DNA of 43,312 nucleotides from a virus (lineage: Duplodnaviria > Heunggongvirae > Uroviricota > Caudoviricetes), in the IMG/VR virus record IMGVR_UViG_2565956616_000006, positions 1-43,312 of that record; one strand, 5' to 3'. Shown here piece by piece: positions 21,095 through 43,312 of this stretch. The position numbers were made by a program, and so were the translations under genes. Below the pieces are notes generated by a model that saw nothing but the letters and a program-made list of their open reading frames with translations, was not told the origin of the DNA and made no database searches. Numbering within the stretch: the first letter of the stretch is position 1; each line of letters begins with the position of its first letter.

Positions 21095-21112
21095 GCTTCT
21101 TCATGTGCGTAG

Positions 21113-21233: not shown

Positions 21234-21280
21234 ATGTGACTGAATTGATGCGCACAACACCTGGCTGGCATCAGAGAGTG

Positions 21281-21583: not shown

Positions 21584-21678
21584 GTGCTATTTGTTTCATA
21601 TTTTGCAATTACTATGATGAATATTGCGATTTGTGAAACTATAATAACTGTTGTTTTATACAGTTCTAAGGGGGCGTT

Positions 21679-21840: not shown

Positions 21841-21856
21841 AAATGGATGGCATCGC

Positions 21857-26515: not shown

Positions 26516-26533
26516 CTGGTAGCCATGGATGGC

Positions 26534-27148: not shown

Positions 27149-28017
27149 ACCAACCCCCTTTAGCGTTGTTTAGAATGGCAATCATCATATATCCAAGACA
27201 TGGCATTTGGTACATAGCTTGGGTCGGGATTTCAAATCCGATCCCCGTTGATGGGGCCGTTACAGTACGCGCATATCCGCTTTATGTGAAACAGGAAGAT
27301 TTTTCTGATATCACTGCCACAGCAAAACACCAATTTCGTGACCAGTACGCGCGCGAGGGGTATCAGTTGCAAAAATTTTGCAACTACGTCCGACCAGTAC
27401 GCACACGATGGCGGGGGATACCATGAAACTGTTCTCTACACGAGACAGAGTGGTGGTGATGTGTTGATTATCGGCGTATATGCGCACAGGACGCGCTATG
27501 ACGATGTTTTATGCGGGTACACCAATCACATGTATCTGATGTGATAAATCGTGTTACATGACATCTCATGTTGTGCTGGTGGTTATCACGACGTTCTGAA
27601 TCTGGCCTTTGCCTGATATTTTGCGACAAGTACGCGCGCGTAGCATCGAAATTATCGGATGGCGTATGCTGCTGGCAATATGAAGACCGATAGTATTAAC
27701 CGAAAAGCGATTAAGGAGTGCCAACTTTTCAGTAGAGAAACTAGCCAGCATAGGAAAATGTAGAAATTACCCAATTAATAGGTAAAAGTTATTGACACAG
27801 CCTGTAGTGGATAACGATATGAATAAAAACCACATATAGTGGTTTTTCGTGAGTGATGATAGTATCTATGTTAGTTTCCTAAGTAACTGTGCATTGACAT
27901 GTGGATAACTTCGGATAGAGTTACAGGCAACCGAGCCCGATCCTCTGTTTCTCCGCCGCCGATTTCAGGCATGTGAGTTTCACGGTCGGGCCTTTTATTA
28001 TCTTTTGTTTCGCCACT

Positions 28018-28995
28018 ATGATTGCCGCAAAGCCTCATAAGGACTATCACGAATTGCTAGGATTGCTACTTGAACGTGGCATGATTATCAATGATCGAAA
28101 TCGTGCGATACGTAAGCTGTCGCAGGTTGGATATTATCGATTGTCAGGTTTTTGGTACCCATCAAGAATTATTGCGACAACAGATAAAGGTCTTTCGTAC
28201 AGAACAGACCGATTTCTTGCTGGTACCAGTTTCGAGAAGACGTACGATCTATATCTTTTTGACAAAAAACTGCGTCTTTTGATGATTGATGCTATCGAAA
28301 GAATAGAGATTCATGTTCGTTCAGTCATCGCGCATGAGGTTGGTCGCAATGATCCACTTGCCTACATGTCATCAAAATACATTAATCCAAAATTCTCATC
28401 TGCCTTCGAGCATTGGGTGTATAAGCAAAAAGTAAAATTAGACGAAAGCAGAGATGACTGTATTGAATGGCATCGAAGCCAAGGCAAGGAGATTCCATTT
28501 TGGGTGGCGGTGGAGACCTGGGATTTTGGTCAGATGTCTAAATATTATGCGATGCTTAATGGTCATATGCAGGGGAAAATTATACGTCGTTTTGGCATTG
28601 ATAATAAGCAGACATTTGCAAAATGGTTGAAGTGCCTTAATCTCATAAGGAATCGTTGCGCTCACCATTCCAGAATATGGAATAGAAAGCATCCCCGAGT
28701 TCCAGTACCGGATAATGAATACTTTGACGGACTTAATCTCCATCCAGAGAGTTGCGAGAGGATTTTTAGCGCGATCTGTATTATCTGGTACTTAGTTAAA
28801 CGACTTGGTCCGGGATCAACATGGCTTCGGCAAATTGCAGACCTTATTGACTCTAAACCAAATGTTCCCGGATGTGGATATGATTCAATGGGTTTACCTG
28901 CTAAAGGATTCCCACGAGAGAGATTCTCTCAGGACTTAGGTTTTGTTATCGCCGACAACGACCCTGTAGCTGAAGGGCGGAAAGGGAGCGATTGA
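28018..28995 (+). CDS. Abortive infection protein, Abi_2 (AbiD/AbiF-like) family
   Basis: N-terminal motif KPHKDYHELLGLLLERGMIIND...VGYYRLSGFWYP typical of AbiD/AbiF-like proteins; ORF track start 27973 is GTG, ATG at 28018 preferred. Confidence 0.65.
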   Translation: MIAAKPHKDYHELLGLLLERGMIINDRNRAIRKLSQVGYYRLSGFWYPSRIIATTDKGLSYRTDRFLAGTSFEKTYDLYLFDKKLRLLMIDAIERIEIHVRSVIAHEVGRNDPLAYMSSKYINPKFSSAFEHWVYKQKVKLDESRDDCIEWHRSQGKEIPFWVAVETWDFGQMSKYYAMLNGHMQGKIIRRFGIDNKQTFAKWLKCLNLIRNRCAHHSRIWNRKHPRVPVPDNEYFDGLNLHPESCERIFSAICIIWYLVKRLGPGSTWLRQIADLIDSKPNVPGCGYDSMGLPAKGFPRERFSQDLGFVIADNDPVAEGRKGSD

Positions 28996-29024
28996 GCGAT
29001 AAATATCATTTATACACTGATCAA

Positions 29025-29453
29025 TTACTGAAGCAGCGTATTGATTCTTTTAATATTGTTACCCTGACGCTTCCACGCGCTGTAAATGTCTTTATCCCAC
29101 GCTTTACCAGCTTTTGTTTGGTAGCCTGCTTCATTGAGCCGTTCCGCTATCACACGCCCATTATCAAATCCCTGTCGGATGGTATCGGCAATGATCTTTA
29201 TAACTGCCGTTTCGTTATATGGCTTTGGTGGGATGTTCGGCTTTCCGGCAATAAGCGACGCAGCGGCTTTTTCCATGCGCTCCACCAGCCCAAGCATTCG
29301 TGAATCAATAGACTTTTCCGGCTGTCCCAGCTTCATGCGAATCGCATCAACAAGCCAGGAGGTTTTATCCCCTCCAGAAGCGAGAACAGACCGATTAAAC
29401 TCATCCTGCAATTCAGATGGGATGCGGAACGCGACCAGATTAGATTTGCTCAT
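29025..29453 (-). CDS. Putative transcriptional regulator with ribbon-helix-helix N-terminus
   Basis: MSKSNLVAFRIPSELQDEFNRSVLASGGDKTSWLVDAIRMKL resembles Arc/CopG-type RHH; start taken at internal ATG 29453. Confidence 0.45.
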   Translation of the reverse strand: MSKSNLVAFRIPSELQDEFNRSVLASGGDKTSWLVDAIRMKLGQPEKSIDSRMLGLVERMEKAAASLIAGKPNIPPKPYNETAVIKIIADTIRQGFDNGRVIAERLNEAGYQTKAGKAWDKDIYSAWKRQGNNIKRINTLLQ

Positions 29454-29562
29454 TGCAAAGACCATATCAGTGAGTAATATCCATACAGTATACCACTGTA
29501 TAACACTGTTATACGCTCAAATATCAGCCAGAAAATAACGGACCAATCACAAAGCTATCGCT

Positions 29563-29696
29563 GTGTTGTTGGTTCAGAGCTGGGCTGTGTTGGTTCAAAA
29601 TGAGTTGATGTTGGTTCAATATTTCAGAAAAAACACAATAAAAACAACGATCTTTACAAATTGAACCAACTGAACCAACTGAACCAACACCTTTTT
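29563..29696. repeat. ori-like iteron cluster 2, inverted copy of cluster 1
   Basis: Reverse complement of 29652-29695 is identical to 21113-21156 (44 bp); same TTGGTTCA/TGAACCAAC content in mirrored order. Confidence 0.7.
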
Positions 29697-29724
29697 GCTT
29701 ATCTATATAATCTGAGAGGCAGAA

Positions 29725-30012
29725 ATGATAAGGGACAGGAAAGCTGAAGAACTGGAGTCAAAAGGGCTATACCGGAGAGCTGCCGCACGATGGGCAGAAG
29801 TCATGATGCTGGCAGATGGCGATAAAGAACGTGAACATGCAGCAAACAGACGCTCTGAATGTATCCGTAAGGCGGCACGCCCACCAGCAACTACAGACAG
29901 ATTCGGAGATTTAAGACAGGCAGTTAAGCGGACTCATTCGGCTCTTGGTATGGATGAGGAAGCGAGAGGGTATTTCAGGCGTTATCGCGATAAAGATTGC
30001 CAGAGACAGTAA
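29725..30012 (+). CDS. PerC-family-like transcriptional activator (95 aa)
   Basis: N-terminus MIRDRKAEELESKGLYRRAAARW resembles PerC-like proteins (from memory). Confidence 0.45.
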   Translation: MIRDRKAEELESKGLYRRAAARWAEVMMLADGDKEREHAANRRSECIRKAARPPATTDRFGDLRQAVKRTHSALGMDEEARGYFRRYRDKDCQRQ

Positions 30013-30354
30013 TGCTCTCTCTGTTTTGGCAAATTACCCCTCACTTTGAAGGGATCGGAGCTATAAAAATGGTGTTATCCGGCTTCCTGCATTGCAGGTT
30101 TTCGAAAGAATCAATGGGTTAGGTTATCGTGCAAATTTGCACTCTGCCAGCCAACGCAATTTCTCGTTGGCGGAAATATCAGGTATTTACTGAACGAACG
30201 GTCTACCCGCCTGTTCAACTACCAGTTGTACATGGCTGCTTTATGTGCAAATGGTGGTGAGAGAAAATTGTTTGGGGGTACTTTTGGGGGTATCTCCAAA
30301 GATGTAACTGGAAAATGTCTTTATATATCAATGTATTTTTATTGTTTGTTTTGT

Positions 30355-30372
30355 TCCTATTATCGGCACCAT
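30355..30372 (+). repeat. att direct repeat copy B (TCCTATTATCGGCACCAT)
   Basis: Exact 18-nt copy of the tRNA 3' core. Confidence 0.8.
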
Positions 30373-30975
30373 CAAGAAAATCAATAACTTAGCTTAACTT
30401 CTCTAAGAAATTGTATCTTCTGTTATCACTTACAAACGCCTATACGTTGTTATGGGCTTTGGTAGTGTAACACGTATGGGCGAGTAGTTCCCAGGCTCAA
30501 CCTCGTAACAAGTTCCTTTGAAGCTGGAAGACGTGCCACCGTCTCTAAACCTTCTACCAAAACTCTTAGCAAGATGTTCCACACCTGGCGCGGTGTCCAA
30601 TGATGCCACACGTCGTGAGACGTTGCAGAGGATAAACAGGCTAAATGATGGGAAGAGTTTTAAGTGCAATAGTGGATTAAAGCCCACCTCTTCAAAACCT
30701 AACTTGATCGGGAAAGAATCAAGCTCTAGCACGGTTTCGTCCACCGGAGTACAACGGGTGCCTGATAAGAGAAGAACTGCTAAGACTTCATAGCTTTTGT
30801 GAAAAAGCCCTTTTAGTGGATACGCCTACGGCGCTTATTTTTTGGTATAACCATCAAAGGCGCTTTATGGCTCCTATTGTCTTGAAAATGTATCTTTACT
30901 TGTATTGTGTTTTATGCGTAGTCTCCCTGTGTAGTATGTAACTTGTTAATTTTCATATGAATACAGAGGCACACG

Positions 30976-31134
30976 ATGAAAAACATTGCAGCTATCAAAC
31001 GTAATAACCGCAAGATTCACGCTCGTAAGTTCCTGTCTACGCCAGAAGGAAAAGCCTGGCTAGAGCGTAAACAGAGAGAGAACGAAGAAAGAAAACTCCT
31101 TAGTGAGTTGAAATGGCTTAGAGAGGATTTCTGA
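30976..31134 (+). CDS. Small basic hypothetical protein (52 aa)
   Basis: ATG with GAGG RBS; hand translation MKNIAAIKRNNRKIHARKFLSTPEGKAWLERKQRENEERKLLSELKWLREDF. Confidence 0.3.
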   Translation: MKNIAAIKRNNRKIHARKFLSTPEGKAWLERKQRENEERKLLSELKWLREDF

Positions 31135-31299
31135 AAATCTCCAGAACGCAACAGGGCGCATTCTAACGCTGTTTTCATTGCTCGGTATAGGGATGTATAG
31201 GTGATGTGTGTTTAATGCGTCTGTGAGCTTGTTTTATGTCTTATTTTGCATTTTCATAATGCAGGAGAGAACACGGAAAGCCTTAAAATTAATTATTGG

Positions 31300-31340
31300 G
31301 GTATTTAAGGCTATTTTTAGGGTATTTAAGGGTATTAAAC
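31300..31340. repeat. Direct repeats of GGTATTTAAGG (2 full + 1 partial), followed by phased TAAATA A-tracts to about 31460
   Basis: Seen directly; AT-rich, ORF-free. Confidence 0.5.
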
Positions 31341-31478
31341 TTGATTTAATTGATTAAAATATAAACAGATAATTATGTATCTTATTGATTTATAAGGTTA
31401 TTTTTAAATAAAGGTAAATAAAAAATAAATAGCCATAAATAGCTATAAATACATCTAAATACCTATATCCCTTCCCTT

Positions 31479-31886
31479 ATGGCTAGATTGCGAGAGGTGC
31501 TTAACGCGATTTTTAGCGCCCCCCGATCTGGAAAATCCAGAATCCCCAAATATCAGCAAGGAATTTTCTTGCGTAATCAACATCGTTTTTACCTATTAAA
31601 TCATTACACAGAAAGCCTTTCTGTAATGTCTCTCACTAAACTTTCACTAAACACGAGAATGATCGGTTTTATGTCGGATCAGATGCTAGAAACAGCACCA
31701 CGTCTCACAAGGGCTGTAAGCGATGAAACCAGTGTTTATGCGGGTGCAGGTCAAAATATAGGCCAAAGTCCATTTAACATAATAAACGTAATATGCACTA
31801 AGGAACACATAGAACGCCTTGAGTTGATGTATAAGGGGAAAAGTGGTGGATTTTTTTACGTAGGAGCACGAGAGGGCTTCTATTGA
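31479..31886 (+). CDS. Hypothetical protein (135 aa; real start may be internal)
   Basis: ORF in AT-rich region, no clear RBS. Confidence 0.3.
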   Translation: MARLREVLNAIFSAPRSGKSRIPKYQQGIFLRNQHRFYLLNHYTESLSVMSLTKLSLNTRMIGFMSDQMLETAPRLTRAVSDETSVYAGAGQNIGQSPFNIINVICTKEHIERLELMYKGKSGGFFYVGAREGFY

Positions 31887-32266
31887 CTTTTGTATGCTAT
31901 GAAATATAATAGAAGGTTTTTATTTTTATGTTGATAGTGATTGCACATTAAAGATTGAAAGCAAATTTAAACATAAATTTTCAACACGTGAAAGAACTTG
32001 TTCGACAAATGATAGAACGTTTATTGAGCAACAATTTTGCAGTGATGCGCTATATGCCGCATAACATAAGGCTTTGCTGATGATGACGCAAAAGTGAAGA
32101 AAGCTAACATTGCACTTTTTAAGCTACTTTTCATTGGATTTTTACGTAGGAATTACACAGGGATTAATCATCAATTACATTGAATTTAAGCCTGTTTTAG
32201 ATGTTTAATTTTGGTAGCAAGAAACACTTTTAGAAGATCATTGCACAGATGTTATGTGATAAATGG

Positions 32267-32426
32267 ATGTAACGATGGGTTACATTCAGCTATCTGAAAT
32301 ACTCTCTGTAAGAAATTTGGTAGTAACGATTCGTTACATAGACTAATTATTGAATGTAACGATATTACACATCGGTAGTAACGATTCGTTACATCGGCAG
32401 ATGATTGGTTGTAACGAAAGGTTACA
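32267..32426. promoter_or_regulatory. Array of five palindromic sites, consensus (T)GTAAC-N5-GTTAC(A), spaced about 56, 32, 22 and 33 bp
   Basis: Sites at about 32267, 32323, 32355, 32377 and 32410; two copies are identical (GTAACGATTCGTTAC). Confidence 0.55.
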
Positions 32427-33149
32427 CAATAAGACTAACATCTATAATACTAATAATAAAACTAACTATTAAACTATATAATATAATTCTTTTTTATCTT
32501 TATAAGAATAATTATAGGGATACCCGTTAGGGAGTCTAACGACTATCCCTTAATCTATTGGCATTCGCCAGAACCTTGCACAAGTTAGAGTGTTAGTCGT
32601 TAGACTGATACTTCTCATAACACATAGTTTTTTGTTTGTTGATGTTAGTTAGTAGATCTATGTTCGCTAATGCCGCTCACAACGAATATGTAATCTACTA
32701 TGTGCAAATAGCCTACGGCTTGCGTAAGGCTAAATAGTCTATGCGCTGTGCGCTTCAATAGTTCCATTGATGAGGCTTACGCCAATCTAACGATCATCAA
32801 TCTATTTAAGAGAAAATCTATTGTGCAATACTCTGACGAGTGCAATAACCTTGTGTGCTACGCGTTAGCGATGTTAGCACATAGACACAGACAACAACCA
32901 ACAACAAACAAAAAAGAAAGAATGGTTTTAGTAGTTGAAGGTTAAATAAGATTCTACCGCTTAAATCAAGCCTCTGGCGAGCTAAACAACCTCTACATAA
33001 GGGAATGTATTGTTTTTATCAAATACCTCGTTAGAACGCGTTTTAGAGCGTTTTAGAGAATAAGGAAGAATAGGAGCACTCGTAAGAGCACGAATTGCTA
33101 AGAAAAATTATAACACACTGAAAATGATCAATATTTTTATGGCCAGGGG

Positions 33150-33178
33150 TTGACAAAAGCTTTTAGTTATGGTAAAGT
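33150..33178 (+). promoter_or_regulatory. Sigma70-type promoter (TTGACA-17 bp-TAAAGT)
   Basis: Consensus -35 at 33150-33155, 17-bp spacer, -10 at 33173-33178, upstream of the island-2 small-gene cluster. Confidence 0.5.
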
Positions 33179-33301
33179 AATATTAGGGACAGGAAAACAT
33201 TCCTATCCTCTAAATAATTAAACCAATGCACCGCACTTTGAAGCCCAAGAGGCTTGCAAGGTGTCTTTTTCTTTTAACCAAATAGAATAGGAGGTTAATT
33301 A

Positions 33302-33484
33302 GTGAAGTATTTCACTTCTCAAGATGTAGTTGAAGCCTGGAAACGTGGTGAGATCAACCGCTTTAGGGTAAGAATGAATAGGAACACAGCGCGACGCTGT
33401 GGTTATCCAGAGCGTGAAAAATGTTTTGACGATGCACTGAAAATTATTGATGAACTGCGTAAGGCAGGAGCAGAGAAAGAATAA
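33302..33484 (+). CDS. Small hypothetical protein (60 aa)
   Basis: GTG start with AGGAGG RBS 7 nt upstream. Confidence 0.45.
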   Translation: MKYFTSQDVVEAWKRGEINRFRVRMNRNTARRCGYPEREKCFDDALKIIDELRKAGAEKE

Positions 33485-33505
33485 TAACAGGAGAAGGAGA
33501 AAACT

Positions 33506-33673
33506 ATGAGCGAAACCAAGAAACCAATTCCACGCACTTACCTACACGTTGACCCTGAAATTTTCAAGATTTTATTTGCTGAAGCCAAGAAAAGGCAAAT
33601 TATGGTCAGTGATTTGATGTTAGAAATCATTACTGAAGCAGCAGAGAACATCAAACAAAAAAAGGGTAAGTGA
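33506..33673 (+). CDS. Small hypothetical protein (55 aa), possible RHH/partition-like DNA binder
   Basis: ATG with GGAGAAGGAGA RBS; hand translation MSETKKPIPRTYLHVDPEIFKILFAEAKKRQIMVSDLMLEIITEAAENIKQKKGK. Confidence 0.45.
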   Translation: MSETKKPIPRTYLHVDPEIFKILFAEAKKRQIMVSDLMLEIITEAAENIKQKKGK

Positions 33674-33726
33674 TCCTCATTCACTTTAGTAGCGCATTAA
33701 GCGTGATTTATAAGGAGATAATTCTA

Positions 33727-34407
33727 ATGTCTAAAATTAAATTGATTCGTGAAAAATACCAGTATGTTGATCAACAAACAGGAGAAATTAAAGACCGAAC
33801 TTTGAATATACCACACTACTTTTGTGAGATTGAATTCATCTACTCCTCAAATATTGAGGATGGAAAAGCGAAGTTTAGTGCAGAAATGCAAAAATTATAT
33901 TGCTATGTTTCAGATTGGGAGAAATCAGGGGGGATATGTTTTGAAACACAAACGAAGTTAAGTAAAGTTTGTGGCTGTAGCCGTAAGACAGTTAATGAAT
34001 TGATTGGTCTTATGATTAAAATCGGTCTTTTAGAAGAGGTCGGAGAACGAATCCCAAAACGTCCATTAAAATTACGTGCGCTACCTCTCACAGATGCACA
34101 TATTACCCCCCCTAGAGAGTCATCACTACCTGATCCTTCTGAGAAAGAAAACGAATCTAATGAAATATTGAATGTTTCAGAAATCATCGTTGAAGAAGAA
34201 ATACAGGAATCAGAGTTCCCTGAGCGGCCCGAAATTTTTACTTGGCTTCTTTCCCTTGATAAGAAGAAACCACCGCACGAAGAAACAGAAGATTTTGTAA
34301 AACGAGCATTAGATTCAAAGAATATCTATCTTTGTGAAAATGATTTTGACTCTTTGATAATTGATCTCAAAAGTGAGAGCACAATATATGATTCACTACC
34401 CTTTTAA
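33727..34407 (+). CDS. Hypothetical protein with predicted helix-turn-helix (possible replication initiator/regulator)
   Basis: ATG with AAGGAG RBS; segment TQTKLSKVCGCSRKTVNELIGLMIKIGLLEE is HTH-like; acidic C-terminus. Confidence 0.45.
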   Translation: MSKIKLIREKYQYVDQQTGEIKDRTLNIPHYFCEIEFIYSSNIEDGKAKFSAEMQKLYCYVSDWEKSGGICFETQTKLSKVCGCSRKTVNELIGLMIKIGLLEEVGERIPKRPLKLRALPLTDAHITPPRESSLPDPSEKENESNEILNVSEIIVEEEIQESEFPERPEIFTWLLSLDKKKPPHEETEDFVKRALDSKNIYLCENDFDSLIIDLKSESTIYDSLPF

Positions 34408-34416
34408 GGAGAATAA

Positions 34417-34686
34417 ATGGCTTATAACATCACTATAGGAAACAAAACTATTGAAATAACTGAGAGCGGATACCACATTTTAAAAGCTATTTTGGAAATA
34501 GAGTTCTCACCGCCGACAGTGGTTAGCTTTTGTAGTTTAGGCGGCTACAGCGCACAACACGTGAATCATTGGTTAAACCATTTTACATCGTTCGGTGTGC
34601 TGGATTATGAAGGGATTAACCACACTACATTTCGTCTTTTGAAATTAAACAAAGATTTTGAATTGTTTATCACAAACAATCAATAA
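34417..34686 (+). CDS. Hypothetical protein (89 aa)
   Basis: ORF with AAGGAG RBS. Confidence 0.45.
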   Translation: MAYNITIGNKTIEITESGYHILKAILEIEFSPPTVVSFCSLGGYSAQHVNHWLNHFTSFGVLDYEGINHTTFRLLKLNKDFELFITNNQ

Positions 34687-34782
34687 CAACAGATCGGGCA
34701 ATACATATGGCAAATGCATTTATGGCGATATTCATCGTAACTATGGCATTAAGTTTTTATAATCCACATAAAAAGAGGGAAA

Positions 34783-35169
34783 ATGGGAAAAAAGAAACGT
34801 AATAACTTAAAACGTATTGAAAAAAACAGTAACTTCAATTCAACAAGACAACGTCCACCGACACATACCAATAACGAAATTCCAGGGGAAGAGATAATCT
34901 TCATTTTAGAATCTAACAGCCCACCACTTACAAACGAAGAATTAGAAATTATTCAATCAATGGGTGATGGTGTGTATTTCAAACCCAGAACAAGAAAGAC
35001 AACGATTATAGAACCTGGCACATTAAAGAAATGGCAGCTGTTAAATTTTACCAGCTACAGGCACTATATCGGTTTTAATAGTTTCAACAATCAGGTAGGC
35101 GGCGTTACAGAAACAGATCTGATGCAGCACCTGATCGACACTCTCGCATCTAACAAACGTTCAAACTAA
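34783..35169 (+). CDS. Hypothetical protein (128 aa)
   Basis: ORF with AGAGGGAAA RBS. Confidence 0.45.
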   Translation: MGKKKRNNLKRIEKNSNFNSTRQRPPTHTNNEIPGEEIIFILESNSPPLTNEELEIIQSMGDGVYFKPRTRKTTIIEPGTLKKWQLLNFTSYRHYIGFNSFNNQVGGVTETDLMQHLIDTLASNKRSN

Positions 35170-35186
35170 AAATAAAAGGAACAACA

Positions 35187-35390
35187 ATGATCGACCATAT
35201 ACAGGAAACACAATTATTTCAGATGATCCTGTCTGATGCAAAAAACTATGCTGAGTTAATTCGGCTGGCAAAAGAAACAGAAGACTACGAAGCATTAGAG
35301 CGTTATCGTGATGAAGTGCTGACGCTCAAGACACCTTTTAACATCGTATTGAATATGATTAATGATGCATTACAAGGAGAAGCCGCATAA
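35187..35390 (+). CDS. Hypothetical protein (67 aa)
   Basis: ORF with AAAGGA RBS. Confidence 0.4.
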   Translation: MIDHIQETQLFQMILSDAKNYAELIRLAKETEDYEALERYRDEVLTLKTPFNIVLNMINDALQGEAA

Positions 35391-35698
35391 TGGAAGAAGA
35401 TATTAGCAATGCAATGGAACAACTTTTAGATCTGACTATCTCACTACAAACAAGAATAAATCAAGCCTATTCAGATTTATGCGATTACACGCTCTCTCAA
35501 TGCGTTATTAGCTTAATGAAGGTGAATGTAAGCCTTGACGATTTTATCTCTCTGGGGAGCGGTTTAGAGCTATCAGAGGACAATGCCAGGCTGTGCACTC
35601 AAATCATCACAGACACCGCAAGCACGTTAAAGGCTGCAAGTGAAGAGATTCAGCAATTAGTAAATGATTTAGCAAAAAGTGCTATTTCTTCTAAGTGA
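35390..35698 (+). CDS. Hypothetical protein (102 aa)
   Basis: ORF with AAGGAGAAG RBS, coupled to previous gene. Confidence 0.45.
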   Translation: MEEDISNAMEQLLDLTISLQTRINQAYSDLCDYTLSQCVISLMKVNVSLDDFISLGSGLELSEDNARLCTQIITDTASTLKAASEEIQQLVNDLAKSAISSK

Positions 35699-36683
35699 TA
35701 ATGAAAATCATTTGCATTTATAACAATTTCATTATATAATGAAATTAGGGGTAGATAAAAAGGTTTTGACTGGTGTTAATCCTTCTACTGTCATAAATCC
35801 CTGCATATGGAAGGTGATAGCCTCAAAGGTTGAGTGGCATTAACCTCTAACAAATATTACCTTCCATCTCTCAAGAAGTTTTAGAATAATCATAACTCCC
35901 TCTTTGATTGTTGATTGTTTCTACGTTGTGTTGATGAATGTTGTTAGGCATTGTGCTTAATTTTGATAAAAGCGGGTAGGTGTTATCTCCTTGCCCTTCC
36001 CGCTATTATTTTTCATCTATGCTTATCCTAAAGCTCCTTATTTTGTCCGAAAACATTAAAGAGCCTTACACTGATAGTTATATTTTATAACTATTTACTA
36101 ACATCATTAAACTCTTATTTAATGACGGAAGTTAGTAACAGAATAATCTATTAAGTTGTTGTCAAAAAACTATCATCTGCATAGCGTTAGCCGCAAGTAG
36201 AGAGAGTTTAGTTAAGAATGGTGCAATAAACTTTGGAAATATTGATAGCAAAACTAGTTTTATAGAATGCGGATCTATAATCTTTGGTTGTAAAAACGAT
36301 TTTCTGAAACGGTAGATTACTGTTGGTGTAGTTAATCATTATTAAAAATTTAATCTGTGAGTAGATTGGAATAGTGATTCCTTAAAATCTGACTGGTGCA
36401 TCCACACCATGAAAGATAGCGGTTGGCCACCGCGCCCCGAATAGATATTCCTGATTGATTCCGCATGTTTTCCTAAGAGCATGTTTTCAGGAGTATCTAT
36501 TCACCCTTTAAGCATATCATCAAGTATATTTAAAAAGTGTATTTGCTGATATGTTTAATCCTCTTATAGTTTAACTTATCAATTATGTAATTGCCCGCAC
36601 GTTAAAGCCCCTTTGCTGGTCAGAATTAACCTCTTACGGCATTGGGGCTTTTTATTTGTCTGGCACTAACAGGAACGTTATTT

Positions 36684-36881
36684 ATGAAACAAGAAATGAT
36701 TATCAGCAAAGACGGGGAAACGATGATTGTTAGTGATGAAAACCTCATTAAGGTTGCCGCACTGTTGGGAGTTACTCCCGAAAGTCTTCGTTCTACCACT
36801 GCTCAATTATTTAAATCGGCTGATGCGGTTAGTCTTGCTGATGCCCTTAAATCTAAAATTAAACAACTGAAAGGAAAATAA
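36684..36881 (+). CDS. Small hypothetical protein
   Basis: Internal ATG (MKQEMIIS) of ORF 36642-36881. Confidence 0.35.
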   Translation: MKQEMIISKDGETMIVSDENLIKVAALLGVTPESLRSTTAQLFKSADAVSLADALKSKIKQLKGK

Positions 36882-36885
36882 TCTT

Positions 36886-37269
36886 ATGGCTAACCCATAT
36901 GGAAAATTAAAAGCAGTGAATGCGGATAACTCCCGTTCACGCTGTAAGGTAGTAGCTTACGCTGCTGATCCAGTGCTGCAAGATCGCCTCGTCAAACTGG
37001 CTTCACCTCTCACTGACGATCTTATTGTCGGGGCTTTGCTGAAAGCCGATGGCACCAAAGCAACAACCGCATCTGATATTGCTCACGTAGTAGTTGAACC
37101 GGCTTATGAAGGACAGGAAAGCGTAGTGGTTGCACATCCTACTTTCGTTATTCTGGCTGAAGATGGGATTGAATTTAACAGCATGGAAAAGGCAAGTGTT
37201 ATTGCAAAACTGCAATCTCTCGGCTTTGTAATTGCTGGTTATGAAGAACTTGCGATCCCTACGACTTAA
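36886..37269 (+). CDS. Hypothetical protein (127 aa)
   Basis: ORF with AAAGGAAAA RBS. Confidence 0.5.
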   Translation: MANPYGKLKAVNADNSRSRCKVVAYAADPVLQDRLVKLASPLTDDLIVGALLKADGTKATTASDIAHVVVEPAYEGQESVVVAHPTFVILAEDGIEFNSMEKASVIAKLQSLGFVIAGYEELAIPTT

Positions 37270-37283
37270 CAAGGAAAATAATA

Positions 37284-38315
37284 ATGAATGATTTATCAAC
37301 ATATTTTGGCGTTAATACTGCGGTAGTAACTCCATTTGCTTATGAGAATGCACTTAATACCCTGATTACTAATCTCGATCTGTTCGATGTGCAATATCAT
37401 ACAGAAAACAGCATTCTTCTTACCGACCTGATTGATCAGTTTGTGCAGGTAGCTGGGGAAACCTCGCCTTACGCTCAAAGCGACTGGAACGCCTCTAAAC
37501 GTCAGGAATGGTCAAACAAACTTTTCCAGATGAAACACGTCGGCAGTATTAACGCTGTTACTTCTCGTGACCTGGAACAATACAGCCGCCAATATCCAAA
37601 CCGTTCTGATGCTATGCTGGTAGCGGTTAATGATTTCTCTGAGGCTCATTACCGTTCACACGCAAACCGTGTTGAAGTGGATCTGATTACCGCGCTGCTG
37701 GGCCTGAAAGTTGAATCTGAATATGCCGGACAAGGTGATCTCGACTTCCTCGACGGTCAGGCTAAAACCACGGTACCCGCTATCGACTTTGCATCGACTA
37801 CTGTTAACCCGTTCCTTGCTATTCGTAAAGCGGTGCGCTTACAGAGTGAAAAGCTGGGGTCTGGTCTTGCTGCAAAGCGAACTGGTGTAATTATCTTTGC
37901 TGCTGGCACTGCTGCTGATGGTTTGTCATCTAACCCGCTGATCAGTGACATGGTGAAATATGCAGGCGATGCGAGTGCTACGGCCCTGTTTACCCGTATG
38001 GTTGATTCTAACCCAGCCTATGACTCTTTCCAGATTGGTGGGATCACTGTTATTGATGTGTCAATGTTTCCTGAGATTGTTGCTCACATCGGAGAGAACG
38101 GTTTCGCAATTGTTCCGGTAATGGATAAAGCGGCACAGTGTTACCAGCTTCATAGCGGCGTTGGTGTGCGTCATGCTGAGTTAGGTCAAGATGCCGTGTT
38201 GCATCACCAATATCTAATCAAGGATGAATTCCAATTCCCATCTGTGGTTACTGAGACATCTTATCTGCCAGTAAACAACATTCCGCAAGCTATCATCTTC
38301 GGATCTGCTGCGTAA
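37284..38315 (+). CDS. Hypothetical protein (343 aa), possibly structural
   Basis: Long ORF with AAGGAAAA RBS; no recognised catalytic motifs. Confidence 0.5.
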   Translation: MNDLSTYFGVNTAVVTPFAYENALNTLITNLDLFDVQYHTENSILLTDLIDQFVQVAGETSPYAQSDWNASKRQEWSNKLFQMKHVGSINAVTSRDLEQYSRQYPNRSDAMLVAVNDFSEAHYRSHANRVEVDLITALLGLKVESEYAGQGDLDFLDGQAKTTVPAIDFASTTVNPFLAIRKAVRLQSEKLGSGLAAKRTGVIIFAAGTAADGLSSNPLISDMVKYAGDASATALFTRMVDSNPAYDSFQIGGITVIDVSMFPEIVAHIGENGFAIVPVMDKAAQCYQLHSGVGVRHAELGQDAVLHHQYLIKDEFQFPSVVTETSYLPVNNIPQAIIFGSAA

Positions 38316-38466
38316 TAAAGCGTTAATAGACGATTCCCCATCGGGGCAATAAGGGTAAAGGGATTAACTAACCTGTAGGCGCAAATACAGTAACGAATCT
38401 CTTTGCCCTTTTTGTTTTTCTACTGTCTACAAACCCAAATAAAAATATATATGTGAGAGAAAACCA

Positions 38467-38679
38467 ATGAATACAGAAAACCCACAATCCTTTATTCTTA
38501 AGGCTGTAAAAGAACTGGCAGCTATTAGCGAGGAATCAGTTATAAACACATCGGCGCTTTGCCGCCTTTTAGAAATTGATGCAAATAATGTGCGCCAGCG
38601 TGTCTTTCAGACTGGGTGCAGCACTTTCGAAGCAATTCAATACTATTGCTCTAAAAACAATAATAAACAACAATCATAA
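38467..38679 (+). CDS. Small hypothetical protein (70 aa)
   Basis: ORF with GAGAGAAAA RBS. Confidence 0.4.
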   Translation: MNTENPQSFILKAVKELAAISEESVINTSALCRLLEIDANNVRQRVFQTGCSTFEAIQYYCSKNNNKQQS

Positions 38680-38697
38680 TACAGGGAAACAATTAGC

Positions 38698-40539
38698 ATG
38701 TTAGACCTTACCGTCAGCCGCTTATCAAACGTTGTCACCTTCCAGGTTGATCGACCATCATTAGAGAAAGCAAAAGCAGAAGTAGAAAAACTTCGTAAAC
38801 AAATGGCGGCTGTGAAAGATATAGAATTGCGTGTTAAGACACATAAACAATCAACCGCTAAAGCAAAAAAAGACGTAGACGATATTGCTAAAAAGCAAGC
38901 ACAGGCTGATAAAGCTAATGCTAAAGCACAATTAGCCGCTCAACGTGTAGTTGCAAGAGAACAAAAAGCCCTGGCAGCACGCAAAGAGAAGGCAGAATTA
39001 AAGCTTTTAGACGTTGGATCAAGCATTAGTGCAATGCACCGTCTTTCTGTAGCGGAACAATATAAAGCTATTGCACAGGCTAGAGAAATTGCCCTCCAAT
39101 ATGAAAGAGGCGCTATTAGTCTGGCACGTATGAATAGCCAAATGAAACGCCTACAACAGCAACAACGTAAGATTAATGGCAATCGTAACGCTCACGCTAA
39201 AGCCTATGCACCTGTTAAGGGTAGCGGGAGTATTGGCGGCGGTGCTGCGGCTGTTATGCTGGGTGGCTTAGGCGCTGGCGCTGCATATATGGCTATGAGC
39301 AAAGCCTCTGAATTTGTTACTAACAGCTTTGCCAGTGCTGAAACGCTGGGAGAATTGTATAGCCGTGCGAAGCTGGGCGGTGTAGACGTTAACCAGATGA
39401 ACAATATTGAGCAATGGGCCTACAAAAACGGCGTTGATTCAATGATGGGGGATCAAGGTAAACGTAAGTATCTCGATCAGATGAAAGATGTACGGGAGAA
39501 GGCTACTAAATCTTATGATGAGGCTGAATATGTAGTTGATAAGAAAACTGGTAAAGGAGAATGGAAGGGCGGCGATAGCGGCATCAATACTTTAATGAAT
39601 GAAGGATTCTTAACTAAAAAGGATCTAAAAGACTTTGCTGATAATCCGGCTGGTCTGGTTAGTAAAGCAGTTCAGGGAATGGTGAAGAAAGGCTATTCAG
39701 ATGCACAAATCGGTAGTCGTCTGGAAGATCTGGCTGATGATTTGATGCTCACCTCTAAATACTGGACACGCTCCGCTAAAGAAGTGGAACAATCAGCACG
39801 AGAACAACGAGAATCAGGGCGCTGGGTAACACAGGCACAACAGGAAAGCGTTATTAAATTCCGTGAACTGAATAATGCACTTAGTGGGCTTTCTGACTCA
39901 CAAGGGATCGCCTTTGTTGATGGCTTTATGAAATCTCTTGATCCGAAAGTGATTGAAGAGTTTAAAAAGAGCATGGTTGCAATGCTGCCAATGTTTACCA
40001 AATTAGGCGAGGCTATCGGCGGATTGGTTAACGCTGTAATGAAAGCAATCAACTGGCTGATGAAAAACGACGAGAAGACGGCAGCTATTCAGAAGAATTT
40101 AGGTGATGCACCGCCACTATCTAACGAAGGAATGAAGCAGAATCTTTCTAATCTCACTCCTGATCAATATAAAGGCGCTGGCACCGGAACAATTAAGCCA
40201 GATAACAGCAATTCCCTGGTTAACACTATTAAAAGCTGGTTTATGCCAGAAGAAACGGTAGGTGGGGCGCAGGCTGTAAATCAATACAGTCTCGAAGGAC
40301 AAAACATTGCAAATCTGAAACAGAGTGCAGCACAACAAGCTTTCAAGGCTCCTTCTTACACCTTTGCGCCTGTTATCCACTTCAATCCAGAATTACAAGT
40401 AAATGCAGAAGTGCCGCTAACTATCGAATCAGACACCGGACGATTGAGCGAATTTATCGACTTCAAATCAAAGGCATCCTCCGCTGAGTTTAGCAAGCTA
40501 TTAACGCTGGGTGTTATGTCAGGCGGGTCAACCTATTAA
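38698..40539 (+). CDS. Hypothetical protein (613 aa): N-terminal Lys/Ala/Gln-rich coiled coil plus Gly-rich hydrophobic segment; tape-measure-like or ejection/pilot-like
   Basis: Residues about 20-165 strongly coiled-coil-like; GSGSIGGGAAAVMLGGLGAGAAYMAMS segment resembles membrane-active segments of tape measure and E proteins. Confidence 0.55.
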   Translation: MLDLTVSRLSNVVTFQVDRPSLEKAKAEVEKLRKQMAAVKDIELRVKTHKQSTAKAKKDVDDIAKKQAQADKANAKAQLAAQRVVAREQKALAARKEKAELKLLDVGSSISAMHRLSVAEQYKAIAQAREIALQYERGAISLARMNSQMKRLQQQQRKINGNRNAHAKAYAPVKGSGSIGGGAAAVMLGGLGAGAAYMAMSKASEFVTNSFASAETLGELYSRAKLGGVDVNQMNNIEQWAYKNGVDSMMGDQGKRKYLDQMKDVREKATKSYDEAEYVVDKKTGKGEWKGGDSGINTLMNEGFLTKKDLKDFADNPAGLVSKAVQGMVKKGYSDAQIGSRLEDLADDLMLTSKYWTRSAKEVEQSAREQRESGRWVTQAQQESVIKFRELNNALSGLSDSQGIAFVDGFMKSLDPKVIEEFKKSMVAMLPMFTKLGEAIGGLVNAVMKAINWLMKNDEKTAAIQKNLGDAPPLSNEGMKQNLSNLTPDQYKGAGTGTIKPDNSNSLVNTIKSWFMPEETVGGAQAVNQYSLEGQNIANLKQSAAQQAFKAPSYTFAPVIHFNPELQVNAEVPLTIESDTGRLSEFIDFKSKASSAEFSKLLTLGVMSGGSTY

Positions 40540-40586
40540 TCATCACTGTGGGGCTGTTTAGCCCCCTTAAATAAGGATTACAAATT

Positions 40587-41255
40587 ATGGCAATGGGTCC
40601 GTTAACCATTGGTCGCCCGACTGAGGCGAAAATCAACAGCACAAGCAACGATAGAACAACCAAAGGGGGTAACGGCTTTGCGATCATTACCTCTAACCTC
40701 GGCAGTGGTGCAAATGCTGCTTACAATGACTACCAGGCATTATCATTTGATAGCGTGGAATCGACGAAAGTTAGCCGAAATGCAGACGTTACAAGCTATG
40801 CCGTCGAATCAGGATCAGAAGTTAGTGATCATGTTCAAATACGGAATAACAAGTTCACATTACAGGGGCGTATCTCTGAAACCGTATTGAAGCTCAATCC
40901 CGATATGATTAAGAATGCGGGAATTAACGGCAATCGACGTATGCTTATGCTTGAATACCTAAATCAGTTGATGGACAGTCGCCAACCTTTCCTACTTGTC
41001 ACTGAGTTAAAAAATTATGACAACGTTGTGTTAGTTGGCATGTCTTATGAAGAAGAAGCAAGCGAAAGTCTATTGTTTACTCTTGATTTTGAGCAAATCC
41101 GTCTTGTCTCTAAAGCAACTACAAGCGCAATTGCGGTAAAAACAGCACCAAATAAATCTGTAGGGGGACAGGTTAAAATGCAGGTAAATACAACAGAACA
41201 GAAAAATCAAAAAAGCCCAGGGCAAGACGTTGTAACGCCAGTATTTAAACAATAG
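40587..41255 (+). CDS. Hypothetical protein (222 aa)
   Basis: ORF with AAGGA RBS, downstream of a stem-loop. Confidence 0.5.
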   Translation: MAMGPLTIGRPTEAKINSTSNDRTTKGGNGFAIITSNLGSGANAAYNDYQALSFDSVESTKVSRNADVTSYAVESGSEVSDHVQIRNNKFTLQGRISETVLKLNPDMIKNAGINGNRRMLMLEYLNQLMDSRQPFLLVTELKNYDNVVLVGMSYEEEASESLLFTLDFEQIRLVSKATTSAIAVKTAPNKSVGGQVKMQVNTTEQKNQKSPGQDVVTPVFKQ

Positions 41256-41336
41256 CCTTAAACGCCTATGAAACGCTCTGTAACGATGTAATTATAAAAG
41301 AGGCCACCAATCTATGTTGAAGCCTCTTTATTGCGC

Positions 41337-42701
41337 CTATGGCGTTGTTTTGCGCCTTAAATTTGATTTTTTATTGATTGATAAGCCTTTCTCTATTTCA
41401 GGGTAGCGTAGAAGCTCAATATAGTTTTTAAGCTCTACTGGAGAAGCTGCATTCTTGCTATATGTGCGGAATGTCTCTGTATTGCCGCGTGTATGGCCCA
41501 GGAGAAGGGCGATCCTGTCTTCTGGAATTTGATTTCGATCAAGAAGCTGTGCTACTCCGTGTCTCAGAGAATGAAACACTTTCCTTTCTGTTCCCTTTTC
41601 CCCTAAAGCCTTTCGTTTAGCTCTTGTAAATCGTTGTGTATGCCACGTAGAGCGTTTACCGTCAGCACGCTCTGTAATGCTGGCGTGATAGAACAAAAAG
41701 CCATTGTGAGGCTTTTCACGAAGAGATAACACCAATGGAGTGATAAGGCTATGCACAGGCACAAGACGTGCCGCAGCTTTCGTCTTTCCCTGTGTGATTT
41801 CAAAACACAGCACACCTTCGATCTCTTTCACATCGTCTATTGTGAGACTTGCTATCTCATTGATCCGCATACCTGTATATAAACCGATAAGACACAAAGC
41901 CATCATTTCTTTGTTTTCTGCTGAATTACCGGAAAATACTTGCAACACCTGCAATAACTCTTTGTTAGAAAATGCCTCGTAGCTCTCTCTACTTTGTGCC
42001 ACATCAAGCCTATGCCCTCGCCAGGGGGAGAGCGCCCTTTCTGGCGCATCGTGGTAACGTGATGAAGCTAACTCCCATAGCTGGGCCATTGGGCTGATAT
42101 AATTTGCAATTGATTGTTGTGAAAGGGTTTTTTGCATGTGTTCAATCCAGCCTGTAACAGTGGTGCGGCTTACATCTTGCAATGCAATATCAGGCTTTTT
42201 ACGGTAGGAGAGAAACATCTCTACCGCTTTTCTTGCCTTAGCTAAAGTGGCTGGCTTCTTCTTCGTGCTGTTAATTGTCAGGTAGATTTCAAGAATTTTA
42301 AGCAATGACGGACACGAAGACGCTGTATCTTGCATTCTGGTAGCTGTTTTGGCGTATTTAGCCTTACTGCGTAACAGTTCCAGCGTGTTTTCTATTGTGC
42401 TGTTTACAGGGGCAACACTCTCCCGTAAGCAATGGTATTCATCTGCAATCTGATCACGCTTTCTACGTGCAACACGAAGATTACTTGTGTGCAGACTTCT
42501 GACAAACGTCCTTTTTCCTTCAAAAAAGGGCTGCATATACACAGGCAGCGTGATCCTTAAATAGTAGTTACCGTAAGAATCACAGATTAAGTATTGGTTA
42601 GGCTTGTATCTCATAAAATCTCCGGCTAAAGTGTCGGAGCGTTTGTAATGTGAAAATTGATTGTGACGCATAGAAAATGATGATTTTTCTATAAGATTCA
42701 A
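41337..42701 (-). CDS. int: Tyrosine recombinase/integrase of island 2 (probable start at 42614)
   Basis: C-terminal catalytic motifs (FHSLRHG; LLGHTRGNTETFRTYS); unrelated in sequence to the island-1 integrase; internal ATG (MRYKPNQ) has a GGAG RBS. Confidence 0.8.
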   Translation of the reverse strand: MNLIEKSSFSMRHNQFSHYKRSDTLAGDFMRYKPNQYLICDSYGNYYLRITLPVYMQPFFEGKRTFVRSLHTSNLRVARRKRDQIADEYHCLRESVAPVNSTIENTLELLRSKAKYAKTATRMQDTASSCPSLLKILEIYLTINSTKKKPATLAKARKAVEMFLSYRKKPDIALQDVSRTTVTGWIEHMQKTLSQQSIANYISPMAQLWELASSRYHDAPERALSPWRGHRLDVAQSRESYEAFSNKELLQVLQVFSGNSAENKEMMALCLIGLYTGMRINEIASLTIDDVKEIEGVLCFEITQGKTKAAARLVPVHSLITPLVLSLREKPHNGFLFYHASITERADGKRSTWHTQRFTRAKRKALGEKGTERKVFHSLRHGVAQLLDRNQIPEDRIALLLGHTRGNTETFRTYSKNAASPVELKNYIELLRYPEIEKGLSINKKSNLRRKTTP

Positions 42702-42758
42702 TCAATTAGTAATGGTCGTAGGTGATGGCATTAACACGAGATTAATCGAGTGTTTTAC

Positions 42759-42776
42759 TCCTATTATCGGCACCAT
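42759..42776 (+). repeat. att direct repeat copy C (TCCTATTATCGGCACCAT)
   Basis: Exact 18-nt copy; 20 of 20 with copy A when flanks are included. Confidence 0.8.
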
Positions 42777-42901
42777 TAAAATCAAAGAGTTACCCCATAT
42801 TTAAATACACCACGTTTCCTCCTGTGCCGCATTTGTGCCATTGTAACCCTGGCAATTCATCAAAATACTGTTCTGACATCAGGCAGTGCAGGTGCAGCTA
42901 T

Positions 42902-43312
42902 TTAAACCAATTGCTGCCGCCATTCTTTGACGTAGTCAATCAGGGCGCGGAGCTTTGGTGCAATATTGCGACGCTGTGGGAAATACAGATAGAAGCCCGG
43001 AAATTGTGGAAGAAAGTCATCAAGCAGCGATACAAGCTTACCGCTTTCAATATATGGCCTGAAAGTTTCCTGAGTGGCAATTGTTATTCCTCCGCCGGCA
43101 AGAGCCAGCCTCAACATCAGACGCAGATCATTAGTCGTAATCTGCGGTTCAATCGCAAGGTCGAAAGTTCTCCCGTTTTCTTCAAATGGCCAGCGATAAG
43201 GCGCAACCTCCGGGGACTGACGCCAGCCGATACACTTATGGGTATTTCCCCCGGAGGCGAGAAAGCGCTCTCCACGCCCGGCCGCAAGGATCAGGACGAC
43301 GGGGGCAGGCAT
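42902..43312 (-). CDS. LysR-family transcriptional regulator, C-terminal part (5' end outside window)
   Basis: C-terminal substrate-binding-domain-like sequence; the frame is open to the window end, so the apparent ATG at 43310-43312 is probably internal. Confidence 0.55.
   Translation of the reverse strand: MPAPVVLILAAGRGERFLASGGNTHKCIGWRQSPEVAPYRWPFEENGRTFDLAIEPQITTNDLRLMLRLALAGGGITIATQETFRPYIESGKLVSLLDDFLPQFPGFYLYFPQRRNIAPKLRALIDYVKEWRQQLV

Follow-up and report, generated by a model that had tools for sequence, protein, structure and literature searches.

Are the co-directional genes near the right end of a tailed-virus record the leavings of a phage, a system that serves the bacterial host, or the working part of an element that lives at the expense of phages? 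Positions 1 to 43,312 of this record, IMG/VR IMGVR_UViG_2565956616_000006 (Caudoviricetes), are called the window below. A first-pass annotation had marked in its "Island 2" a late cluster of unrecognised 127-, 343-, 70-, 613- and 222-aa proteins and had proposed either a second satellite with a virion-modifying module or a novel membrane-active system. The first of these proposals is favoured by our analysis. With a probability of roughly 0.7, positions 36684-41255 are the late (virion) module of a 12.4-kb integrative satellite at the tRNA-Thr gene thrW (30355-42776), whose helpers are virulent myoviruses of the Stephanstirmvirinae; the most likely helper for this copy is a phi92-like Justusliebigvirus. 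We read the element as a satellite because it has att repeats, an integrase, a Rep-like gene with iterons, an incomplete set of virion genes homologous to those of one phage subfamily, and a copy of a phage terminal-repeat boundary.

The late block consists of the following genes:

36684-36881, + strand: 65-aa protein that opens the late block, a RefSeq coding sequence in strain E2 with a possible helix-turn-helix (HTH)
36886-37269, + strand: predicted capsid decoration (cement) protein, gpD/SHP-like, 127 aa, from its predicted fold
37284-38315, + strand: predicted major capsid protein (MCP) of HK97 fold, 343 aa, from a family hidden Markov model (HMM) and an AlphaFold2 model
38467-38679, + strand: HTH protein, 70 aa, between the MCP and tape measure genes, from generic HTH hits
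38698-40539, + strand: putative tail tape measure protein (TMP), 613 aa, from phrog_16051 and alignment with phi92 gp134
40587-41255, + strand: Dit-like baseplate/tail protein, 222 aa, from Pfam PF21821

The five open reading frames (ORFs) of 127, 343, 70, 613 and 222 aa that had been called are all real, all on the + strand and of exactly those lengths. The start of the block needs adjustment: the TTG at 36642 opens a 79-aa ORF, and both RefSeq and the sequence favour the ATG at 36684 and a 65-aa product, for which a faint HTH_3 hit is the sole family match. The late ORFs are all intact, and the dN/dS values of 0.08-0.33 for all five late genes, calculated between the window and a diverged second type of E. 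coli island, indicate purifying selection.

The link to one group of phages is clearest in the tail proteins. The 613-aa protein matched the PHROG tape measure family phrog_16051 (E=1.3e-31) and aligned end-to-end with phi92 gp134 (BLASTP 2e-26), covering aa 1-33 and 84-612; the HMM of the island TMP family found the phage TMPs at 1e-116 and 1e-104. Identity between island and phage TMPs is 26-30%. Among 50,697 phage records, homologues were confined to 134 phages of the Stephanstirmvirinae type (phi92/phAPEC8-type), and the TMP of a Klebsiella island matched the same 134 phages with up to 40% identity. By sequence similarity, the 613-aa protein is thus a full-length homologue of the phi92/phAPEC8 tape measure, the role of gp134 being itself a prediction in the phi92 record. 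The suspicion of a tape measure function raised by the first reading was right, and the two regions on which it was founded are present: in the N-terminal 174 aa, charged residues make up 32% and Ala 18%, and this part is followed at aa 175-201 (39220-39300) by an uncharged Gly/Ala-rich segment, GSGSIGGGAAAVMLGGLGAGAAYMAMS.

This uncharged Gly/Ala-rich segment could enter a membrane, and the competing proposal was that the 613-aa protein is the centre of a novel membrane-active or secretion-like system. We regard this as barely credible. The segment, like the whole 613-aa protein, aligns with the phage TMP, so that the Gly-rich hydrophobic stretch is a conserved feature of phage tape measures; the neighbouring genes encode capsid and baseplate proteins, and Pfam and PHROG scans of the island revealed no secretion or membrane families.

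The 222-aa protein matched the Pfam Dit_like family PF21821 at E=1.7e-27 (96.5 bits against a threshold of 24.2), a domain that phi92 gp135 shares. It is 49% identical to gp135 (3e-62) and 53% identical to the Phapecoctavirus counterpart, and one DNA stretch of its gene is 83% identical to phAPEC8. The Dit-like gene was found in E. coli and Phytobacter islands alone. Given these Pfam and PHROG matches of the 222- and 613-aa products, the description of the cluster as unrecognised proteins did not hold. The 70-aa protein has just generic HTH hits and lies at the same position between the MCP and TMP genes in all family members. Phi92 gp133, the small gene before the phage TMP gene, was considered as its counterpart and ruled out, since the two have no similarity; the 70-aa product is a generic small HTH protein, and packaging specificity, excision and late regulation are candidate roles for it.

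Recognition of the capsid proteins required more sensitive comparisons. A Pfam scan of the 343-aa protein gave no hit and tblastn against all phages returned just marginal matches to Aeromonas MCPs, and the assignment became possible by combining a family profile with a search by fold. The annotation "major capsid protein E", together with a precomputed assignment to PF03864 (Phage_cap_E), is attached to homologues from other enterobacteria, and phi92 gp124 itself belongs to this family at 1.8e-39; one of these homologues (P0009), when scanned against PF03864, scored 18.3 bits, under the gathering score of 22.9 bits. A profile built from 13 family members was searched against 311 phage ORFs, and its sole significant matches, both full length, were the MCPs of phAPEC8 (1.6e-9) and phi92 (6.8e-8). 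The AlphaFold2 model of the 343-aa protein, of moderate confidence (pLDDT 58, pTM 0.59), had 18 Protein Data Bank matches at E<=1e-3, every one a phage MCP, the best being those of phiTE (1.5e-9) and ICP1 (3.6e-9), with Bas63, Sf14, Chi and P1 among the others. By profile and predicted fold, the 343-aa protein is an HK97-fold MCP and probably a divergent member of the lambda-E family.

The gene for the 127-aa protein ends 15 bp upstream of the MCP gene, an arrangement as in phi92, and the size and position of its product fit phi92 gp123. By sequence alone the similarity to gp123 is faint (BLASTP 1e-3 over 23 aa; HMM E=0.12, though as the top match), as were the results of hhalign (E=0.035, probability 1.5%) and PHROG (0.068), and the assignment comes from structure prediction because these sequence tests are weak. 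The AlphaFold2 model (pLDDT 78, pTM 0.70) matched the decoration chains of Bas63, phiTE and Sf14 (E ~1e-5, probability 1.0) and also SHP and gpD. Its modelled fold marks the 127-aa product as a capsid decoration protein of the gpD/SHP-like type. The decoration family comprises 138 clusters at 90% identity, every one from bacterial contigs and annotated as hypothetical. The structure predictions that had been recommended for these two proteins thus yielded an HK97 fold and a decoration fold, and the claim of the first reading that further head or tail genes are missing proved mistaken, because the 343-, 127- and 222-aa proteins are head and tail proteins.

In phi92 and phAPEC8, the gene order is decoration (130-132 aa), MCP (333 aa), eight further genes, a small gene (72-75 aa), TMP (659-662 aa) and Dit-like (233-236 aa). 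The island keeps the order decoration-MCP-small-TMP-Dit and holds just that subset, so that four homologues of Stephanstirmvirinae genes (phi92 gp123, gp124, gp134 and gp135) stand in the same order in both. The island differs from these phages in that its MCP is similar by profile only, its TMP and Dit-like protein have 26-30% and 49-53% identity, respectively, its TMPs are 20-49 aa shorter, and its genes lie in a 12-kb integrative element and not in a 148-kb virulent genome. When all island ORFs were scanned against Pfam and PHROG, no gene for a portal, a terminase, a protease/scaffold, a sheath, a tube or a fibre came to light; MCP, decoration, TMP and Dit are the only virion-type families among these ORFs, and the virion set is therefore incomplete.

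These genes lie inside an element that is bounded as follows:

30355-30372, unstranded: attL core TCCTATTATCGGCACCAT, the 3' end of the tRNA-Thr gene thrW, as a partial copy left by the neighbouring element
41337-42701, - strand: tyrosine integrase (DUF6538 + Phage_integrase), from Pfam and PHROG, adjoining attR
42759-42776, unstranded: attR core TCCTATTATCGGCACCAT, a direct repeat with attL

The 18-bp direct repeats are intact and 12,404 bp apart. In strain E2, an intact tRNA-Thr(CGT) gene ends at the position of the left repeat, and homology with other islands ends at 42776/42777. With the RefSeq start, the integrase has 425 aa (41337-42614), and its gene occupies the same position in all family members.

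A search for homologous islands showed that the cluster is conserved as a unit, which consists of small early genes, the Rep-like gene, a gene-free stretch, the genes for the decoration protein, MCP, small HTH protein and TMP, with or without Dit, and the integrase gene. This unit was found in at least ten genera (Escherichia, Klebsiella, Citrobacter, Enterobacter, Kluyvera, Kosakonia, Phytobacter, Raoultella, Buttiauxella, Scandinavium and Yersinia), including Klebsiella loci L003-L005 and the second E. coli type at a tRNA-Gly gene (L006). The Yersinia form is more distant and has genes for 115-, 347-, 65- and 600-aa proteins followed by the integrase gene. Sister elements in other genera are located at tRNA-Thr(CGT) or tRNA-Gly(CCC), and protein identities across genera drop to 29-48%. 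An element size of 12-14 kb, the integrase, the att repeats and a Rep/iteron replicon are maintained in every lineage.

This pattern also bears on whether the block might be a decayed cryptic prophage, in which structural genes left over from a once complete temperate relative of phi92 stand beside an integrase by chance. The thrW/intF locus is presumably the site at which E. coli K-12 carries the cryptic prophage CP4-6, most genes of the element are annotated as hypothetical, and its virion genes are just a subset, all of which would suit such a remnant. Against this, the subset is non-contiguous in the phages and recurs in the same order, together with an integrase, in at least ten genera, at different tRNA sites and at identities down to 29-48%. 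Neither the late ORFs, which are under purifying selection, nor the att repeats are disrupted, and the phage relatives are, to our knowledge, strictly virulent, 145-150 kb in size and without an integrase. A remnant of the CP4-6 type was rejected because one gene subset is conserved across genera, which random decay would not reproduce, and we consider decay of a prophage quite improbable.

The satellite reading is further suggested by a putative replication module to the left of the late block:

32259-32417, unstranded: iteron cluster of five GTAAC-N5-GTTAC-type palindromes, followed by AT-rich sequence to ~32520; putative replication origin
33150-33178, + strand: sigma-70-like promoter TTGACA-17-TAAAGT, from a pattern match alone (consensus scan 10/12, extended TG)
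33302-33484, + strand: early gene, 60 aa, conserved in Klebsiella, E. coli type 2 and Raoultella islands
33506-33673, + strand: early gene, 55 aa, conserved in the same islands
33727-34407, + strand: Rep-like protein, 226 aa, with an N-terminal winged HTH (HTH_36, lambda-O-like) and an acidic C-terminal part, from weak profile matches
34417-35698, + strand: four early/middle genes for 89-, 128-, 67- and 102-aa proteins, with no informative family match

The five palindromes fit within 160 bp upstream of the Rep-like gene, and the heptamer GTAACGA occurs seven times in the cluster, compared with 3.45 occurrences expected across the whole window. Matches of the Rep-like protein are weak, the best being 1e-5 to PHROG replication-initiation families and 1.4e-4 to HTH_36. 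The N-terminal half of Rep and the iteron cluster were either kept together or replaced together in all nine E. coli variants, and the corresponding site in other family members is occupied by other palindromic iterons. The 128-aa early/middle protein is conserved in eight genera at 33-47% identity. As a separate observation, a 46-bp segment upstream of the early genes in a Klebsiella island (L003:5956-6001) recurs with 87.5% identity in ~27 T5-like Salmonella phages, one of whose records has an annotated repeat region there.

Part of this module is shared with phages of the same group. The 625 bp at 33494-34118 are 95.4% identical to phage inny and partly also to phage muut, and the 55-aa early gene is 95-97% identical in nucleotide sequence to genes in both. 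In inny, gp184 (367 aa; L029:3233-4336) begins with 140 aa that are 88% identical to the DNA-binding domain of the island Rep; behind them lie another HTH_36 domain and a MUG113/T5orf172 GIY-YIG-type domain. The C-terminal domain is common to putative homing endonucleases of many phages, and most of the chimera was found in four records alone, among them inny and the Phapecoctavirus Mt1B1_P17. In ICP1, the Odn protein likewise joins a satellite-derived domain, the PLE RepA DNA-binding domain, to a T5orf172 nuclease, and it cuts the PLE origin at the iterons (PMC8263062). By analogy, inny gp184 is a candidate origin-directed anti-satellite nuclease.

A second segment related to phages lies between attL and the iterons:

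31130-31994, unstranded: swappable cassette with a helper terminal-repeat-boundary sequence, replaced in E. coli sister islands
31488-31527, - strand: mimic, 40 bp, of the inner boundary of the phi92 direct terminal repeat (DTR); candidate terminase recognition/cut site

The 40-bp sequence is identical at 39 of 40 positions to phi92 318-357, which spans the annotated inner end (343|344) of the 343-bp DTR, and alignment of the phi92 genome at its physical right end reaches window position 31502. About 60 phi92-type phages hold the boundary sequence at 90-97% identity. The conserved boundary element extends to CAAATATC at 31547-31554; this motif and TTAACG, which contains the phi92 end, are invariant in all aligned islands and phages, the Klebsiella island included. 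E. coli sister islands have a different segment of ~1.35 kb in place of 31130-31994, with their late genes and remaining sequence 96-99% identical, and an 83-bp core of this alternative cassette is 81% identical to a non-coding sequence in 65 Phapecoctavirus records. The Phapecoctavirus sequence lies ~270-350 bp from the genome ends and is present in two copies in records that include both repeats. From this sequence evidence we infer that the region around 31488-31527 is a copied helper terminase recognition/cut region on which the terminase would act, the cassette being exchanged to fit the helper genus. The boundary sequence is overlapped by a 135-aa ORF (31479-31886), which is probably not a gene because its homologues are restricted to identical islands and it has no family match. 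Of 5426 complete E. coli genomes, 428 have the phi92-type cassette, in every case on the chromosome; the element has the look of an undescribed family of satellites of phi92/phAPEC8-type coliphages that occurs in about 8% of complete E. coli genomes.

Induction, excision, packaging, capsid size, incorporation of TMP and Dit, and interference with the helper are parts of a cycle that we infer, and a model of it is proposed as follows. The element would reside integrated in the chromosome until infection by a helper, upon which it would be excised by its own integrase and replicate from the iteron origin with its own Rep-like initiator. Expression of the late block would follow, and the satellite's HK97-fold MCP and gpD-like cement would form a shell on the portal and scaffold of the helper. 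This shell would presumably be smaller than that of the helper, since 12.4 kb would suit a T=4 capsid of the kind made by satellites; the genomes of satellites with such capsids (P4, SaPI and PLE) have a size range that includes 12.4 kb. The helper terminase may then recognise the copied terminal-repeat boundary and package satellite DNA, and the satellite TMP, together with the Dit-like ring protein in the E. coli lineages, would replace its helper counterparts in the core of helper-built tails.

Several points weigh against this reading. Searches for the attP junction, with a 48-mer in metagenome contigs and a 37-mer in metagenome and viral contigs, gave zero matches, and the IMG/VR loci with the MCP or DTR-like site are mostly prophage calls in isolate genomes, along with two metagenome contigs and one contig of phi92 size (149.5 kb), which gives packaging no support from viromes. 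The island was also searched for another copy of the DTR boundary, for the remainder of the phi92 repeat and for its outer boundary, and none was found. The island MCP is very far from that of the helper (pairwise, just a 20-aa N-terminal motif is detectable), its fit to the helper portal and scaffold is an assumption, and its structural model is of moderate confidence. The Rep assignment comes from weak profile hits, and the nuclease domain of inny gp184 is at or below the Pfam threshold (MUG113 at 22.3 bits, equal to the cut-off; T5orf172 at 15.5 against 20). Finally, the island TMPs of 613-642 aa are only 3-7% (20-49 aa) shorter than those of the phages (659-662 aa), the Yersinia island TMP having 600 aa, and the purpose of a satellite TMP is a matter of conjecture: nucleation of extra or slightly shorter tails, an ejection apparatus adapted to the satellite, or interference with tail assembly by the helper.

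In an alternative explanation, the island is an anti-phage defence that acts by assembly poisoning. Its divergent capsid, cement, TMP and baseplate copies would co-assemble with phage proteins into dead particles, its terminal-repeat copy would be a decoy for the terminase, and the element would never be packaged or transferred. The island proteins have as their homologues precisely the components from which assembly is nucleated or templated, terminase could be titrated by a cloned copy of its site, phages seem to retaliate with a Rep-domain nuclease, and neither a packaged nor an excised form was found in contig collections. The two explanations also overlap, in that known satellites interfere with their helpers too. 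However, an integrase, intact att sites, a Rep/iteron replicon and a size of 12-14 kb in every lineage are the needs of a mobilised element and go beyond those of a decoy. Occurrence at two tRNA sites and in many genera and mosaic exchange of cassettes indicate horizontal movement, which argues against a defence island that is never transferred, and a pure decoy has no need of a matched MCP-cement pair under purifying selection. Assembly poisoning as the sole function is therefore unlikely, though less so than prophage decay, and a satellite of Stephanstirmvirinae is the reading that we retain.

Among known satellites, the element may be closest in its working to PLE of Vibrio cholerae with its helper ICP1, and its possession of a capsid protein recalls the cf-PICIs and the Ccm-type SaPIs. 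PLE is likewise integrated, of similar size and dependent on a virulent myovirus (ICP1), it has its own Rep and an iteron origin that are exchanged as a module, and one of the closest structural matches of the island MCP is the ICP1 MCP as assembled in the small capsids of PLE (8g1r). Unlike the element, PLE has no capsid protein of its own and reshapes the ICP1 coat with the external scaffold TcaP, it has no TMP or baseplate gene, and its hosts and helpers are unrelated. No sequence homology between PLE, a Vibrio element marked by RepA_N, TcaP and other genes of its own, and the island was detected in the searches made; the likeness is one of architecture and lies in the Rep/iteron module and the Odn-like counter-nuclease of a phage.

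The cf-PICIs share with the element an HK97-fold MCP of their own and reliance on helper tails. Their head module is complete (small and large terminase subunits, portal, protease, MCP and head-tail connectors) and they are not known to have tail genes, whereas the head genes of the element are MCP and cement alone, without portal, protease or terminase in our scans; the element does have genes of the tail core (TMP with or without Dit), and it presumably depends on virulent and not on temperate helpers. In SaPIs of the SaPIbov5 type, the Ccm homologue of the MCP redirects capsid size, and packaging proceeds through a helper cos/pac-type site borne by the island. Compared by description, these SaPIs resemble the element in having a satellite-borne homologue of the helper MCP and, if the copied boundary is one, a helper packaging site; they differ in their Gram-positive hosts and temperate cos siphovirus helpers and are not known to have cement or tail genes. 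P4 is similar in size (11.6 kb against 12.4 kb), in integration at a tRNA gene, in encoding a cement/decoration protein (Psu) and in its helper packaging site, of which the copied 40-bp sequence would be the counterpart. It differs in using the P2 MCP with the external scaffold Sid, in its primase-helicase and in having no MCP, TMP or Dit; no P4 markers (Psu, Sid, Delta or the alpha primase-helicase) turned up in Pfam and PHROG scans of the island ORFs, and a TOPRIM/DUF927 primase in the window belongs to the left neighbouring element and not to the satellite.

Thus, the element fails the defining features of the cf-PICI, P4-like, classical PICI and PLE families, and for this reason we place it in a new family of a known kind. 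We lean, at slightly better than even odds, towards a wider proposal in which it is the founding member of an undescribed, Enterobacteriaceae-wide family (~8% of complete E. coli genomes) that depends on virulent phi92/phAPEC8-type myoviruses and is the first satellite to supply both its own shell (MCP and cement) and its own tail core (TMP with or without Dit), with portal, terminase, sheath, tube and fibres taken from the helper. In this proposal, exchange of the cassette changes the helper genus, and phages answer with Odn-like Rep-domain nucleases. A literature search turned up neither a satellite of phi92, of phAPEC8 or of the Stephanstirmvirinae nor one with a TMP gene, and a description elsewhere is possible.

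The E. coli satellites known to us rely on temperate helpers, P2 in the case of P4 and lambdoid phages in that of PICIs and cf-PICIs. If our reading is true, a common satellite of large virulent coliphages would bring an arms race like that of PLE and ICP1 to the best-studied bacterium. Relatives of the phi92/phAPEC8-type phages are reported to have been isolated against avian-pathogenic, uropathogenic and extended-spectrum beta-lactamase-producing E. coli and are part of therapy and biocontrol collections; resident satellites could reduce the efficacy of such phages and spread by transduction. We know of no member of the P4, classical PICI/SaPI, cf-PICI or PLE families with this repertoire of an own capsid and cement pair and an own TMP, and it makes several questions testable, including how the T number of a capsid is set, how a foreign MCP assembles on the portal and scaffold of another virus, and whether a TMP has a role beyond that of setting length. 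The copied 40-bp sequence is a concrete candidate for the terminase cut/recognition site of DTR-type Stephanstirmvirinae, and inny gp184 would be a second candidate case of an origin-directed anti-satellite nuclease.

Regulation of the late block may involve the sequence that precedes it:

35699-36683, + strand: gene-free region, 985 bp, before the late block; no ORF of more than 46 aa
36606-36655: terminator-like hairpin AAAGCCCC...GGGGCTTTTTATTT, read from the sequence, closing the gene-free region just before the ATG at 36684

The DNA of the gene-free region is not conserved in comparison with the type 2 E. coli island, and the hairpin has a long loop. A regulatory RNA or an antitermination region may be located here; an Rfam search of 29500-43312 at a relaxed threshold, which covered both gene-free stretches, found no RNA family. 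Upstream of the first late gene, the 18 nt GGGGCTTTTTATTTGTCT at 36643-36660 (the terminator tail and the next bases) are identical to the terminator tail upstream of phi92 gp135 (L002:22600-22625), and the island segment GTCTGGCACTAACAGG resembles GTCCCACTAACAATG upstream of phi92 gp125. These likenesses could be due to chance or to common regulatory signals. A search for late-promoter motifs common to island and phage returned just sigma-70-like promoters in phage intergenic regions and the 18-nt identity in the terminator tail.

Two further sequences are conserved at the left end of the element, one of them a gene:

30976-31134, + strand: small basic protein, 52 aa, near attL; 76-78% identical in Citrobacter, Kluyvera and Raoultella islands, with no family match

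The ~300 bp just inside attL (30355-30656) are 72-79% identical in Citrobacter and Raoultella islands and have no convincing ORF; they probably contain arm-binding sites for integrase/excisionase or encode a small RNA.

The flanks of the satellite have features of their own. A tandem neighbour at thrW (14000-30376) adjoins it on the left and ends at the partial tRNA copy 30355-30372. According to the annotation available through L033, this neighbour encodes an ash-family protein, an antirepressor, a 919-aa TOPRIM/DUF927 primase, a DUF2824 protein, a P22-type "phage DNA ejection protein", a 701-aa hypothetical protein, Abi and PerC, and it may be another satellite with a virion-modifying module ("Island 1"). 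Farther to the left, at 80-7116, co-directional ORFs of 166, 472, 233, 151, 231, 471 and 613 aa form a size pattern that is partly like that of the DUF2824/ejection-protein genes at 21857-26515. On the other side, beyond attR, a LysR-type gene (42902-43312; L001:17903-18241) is a pseudogene fragment in RefSeq and lies beside paoD.

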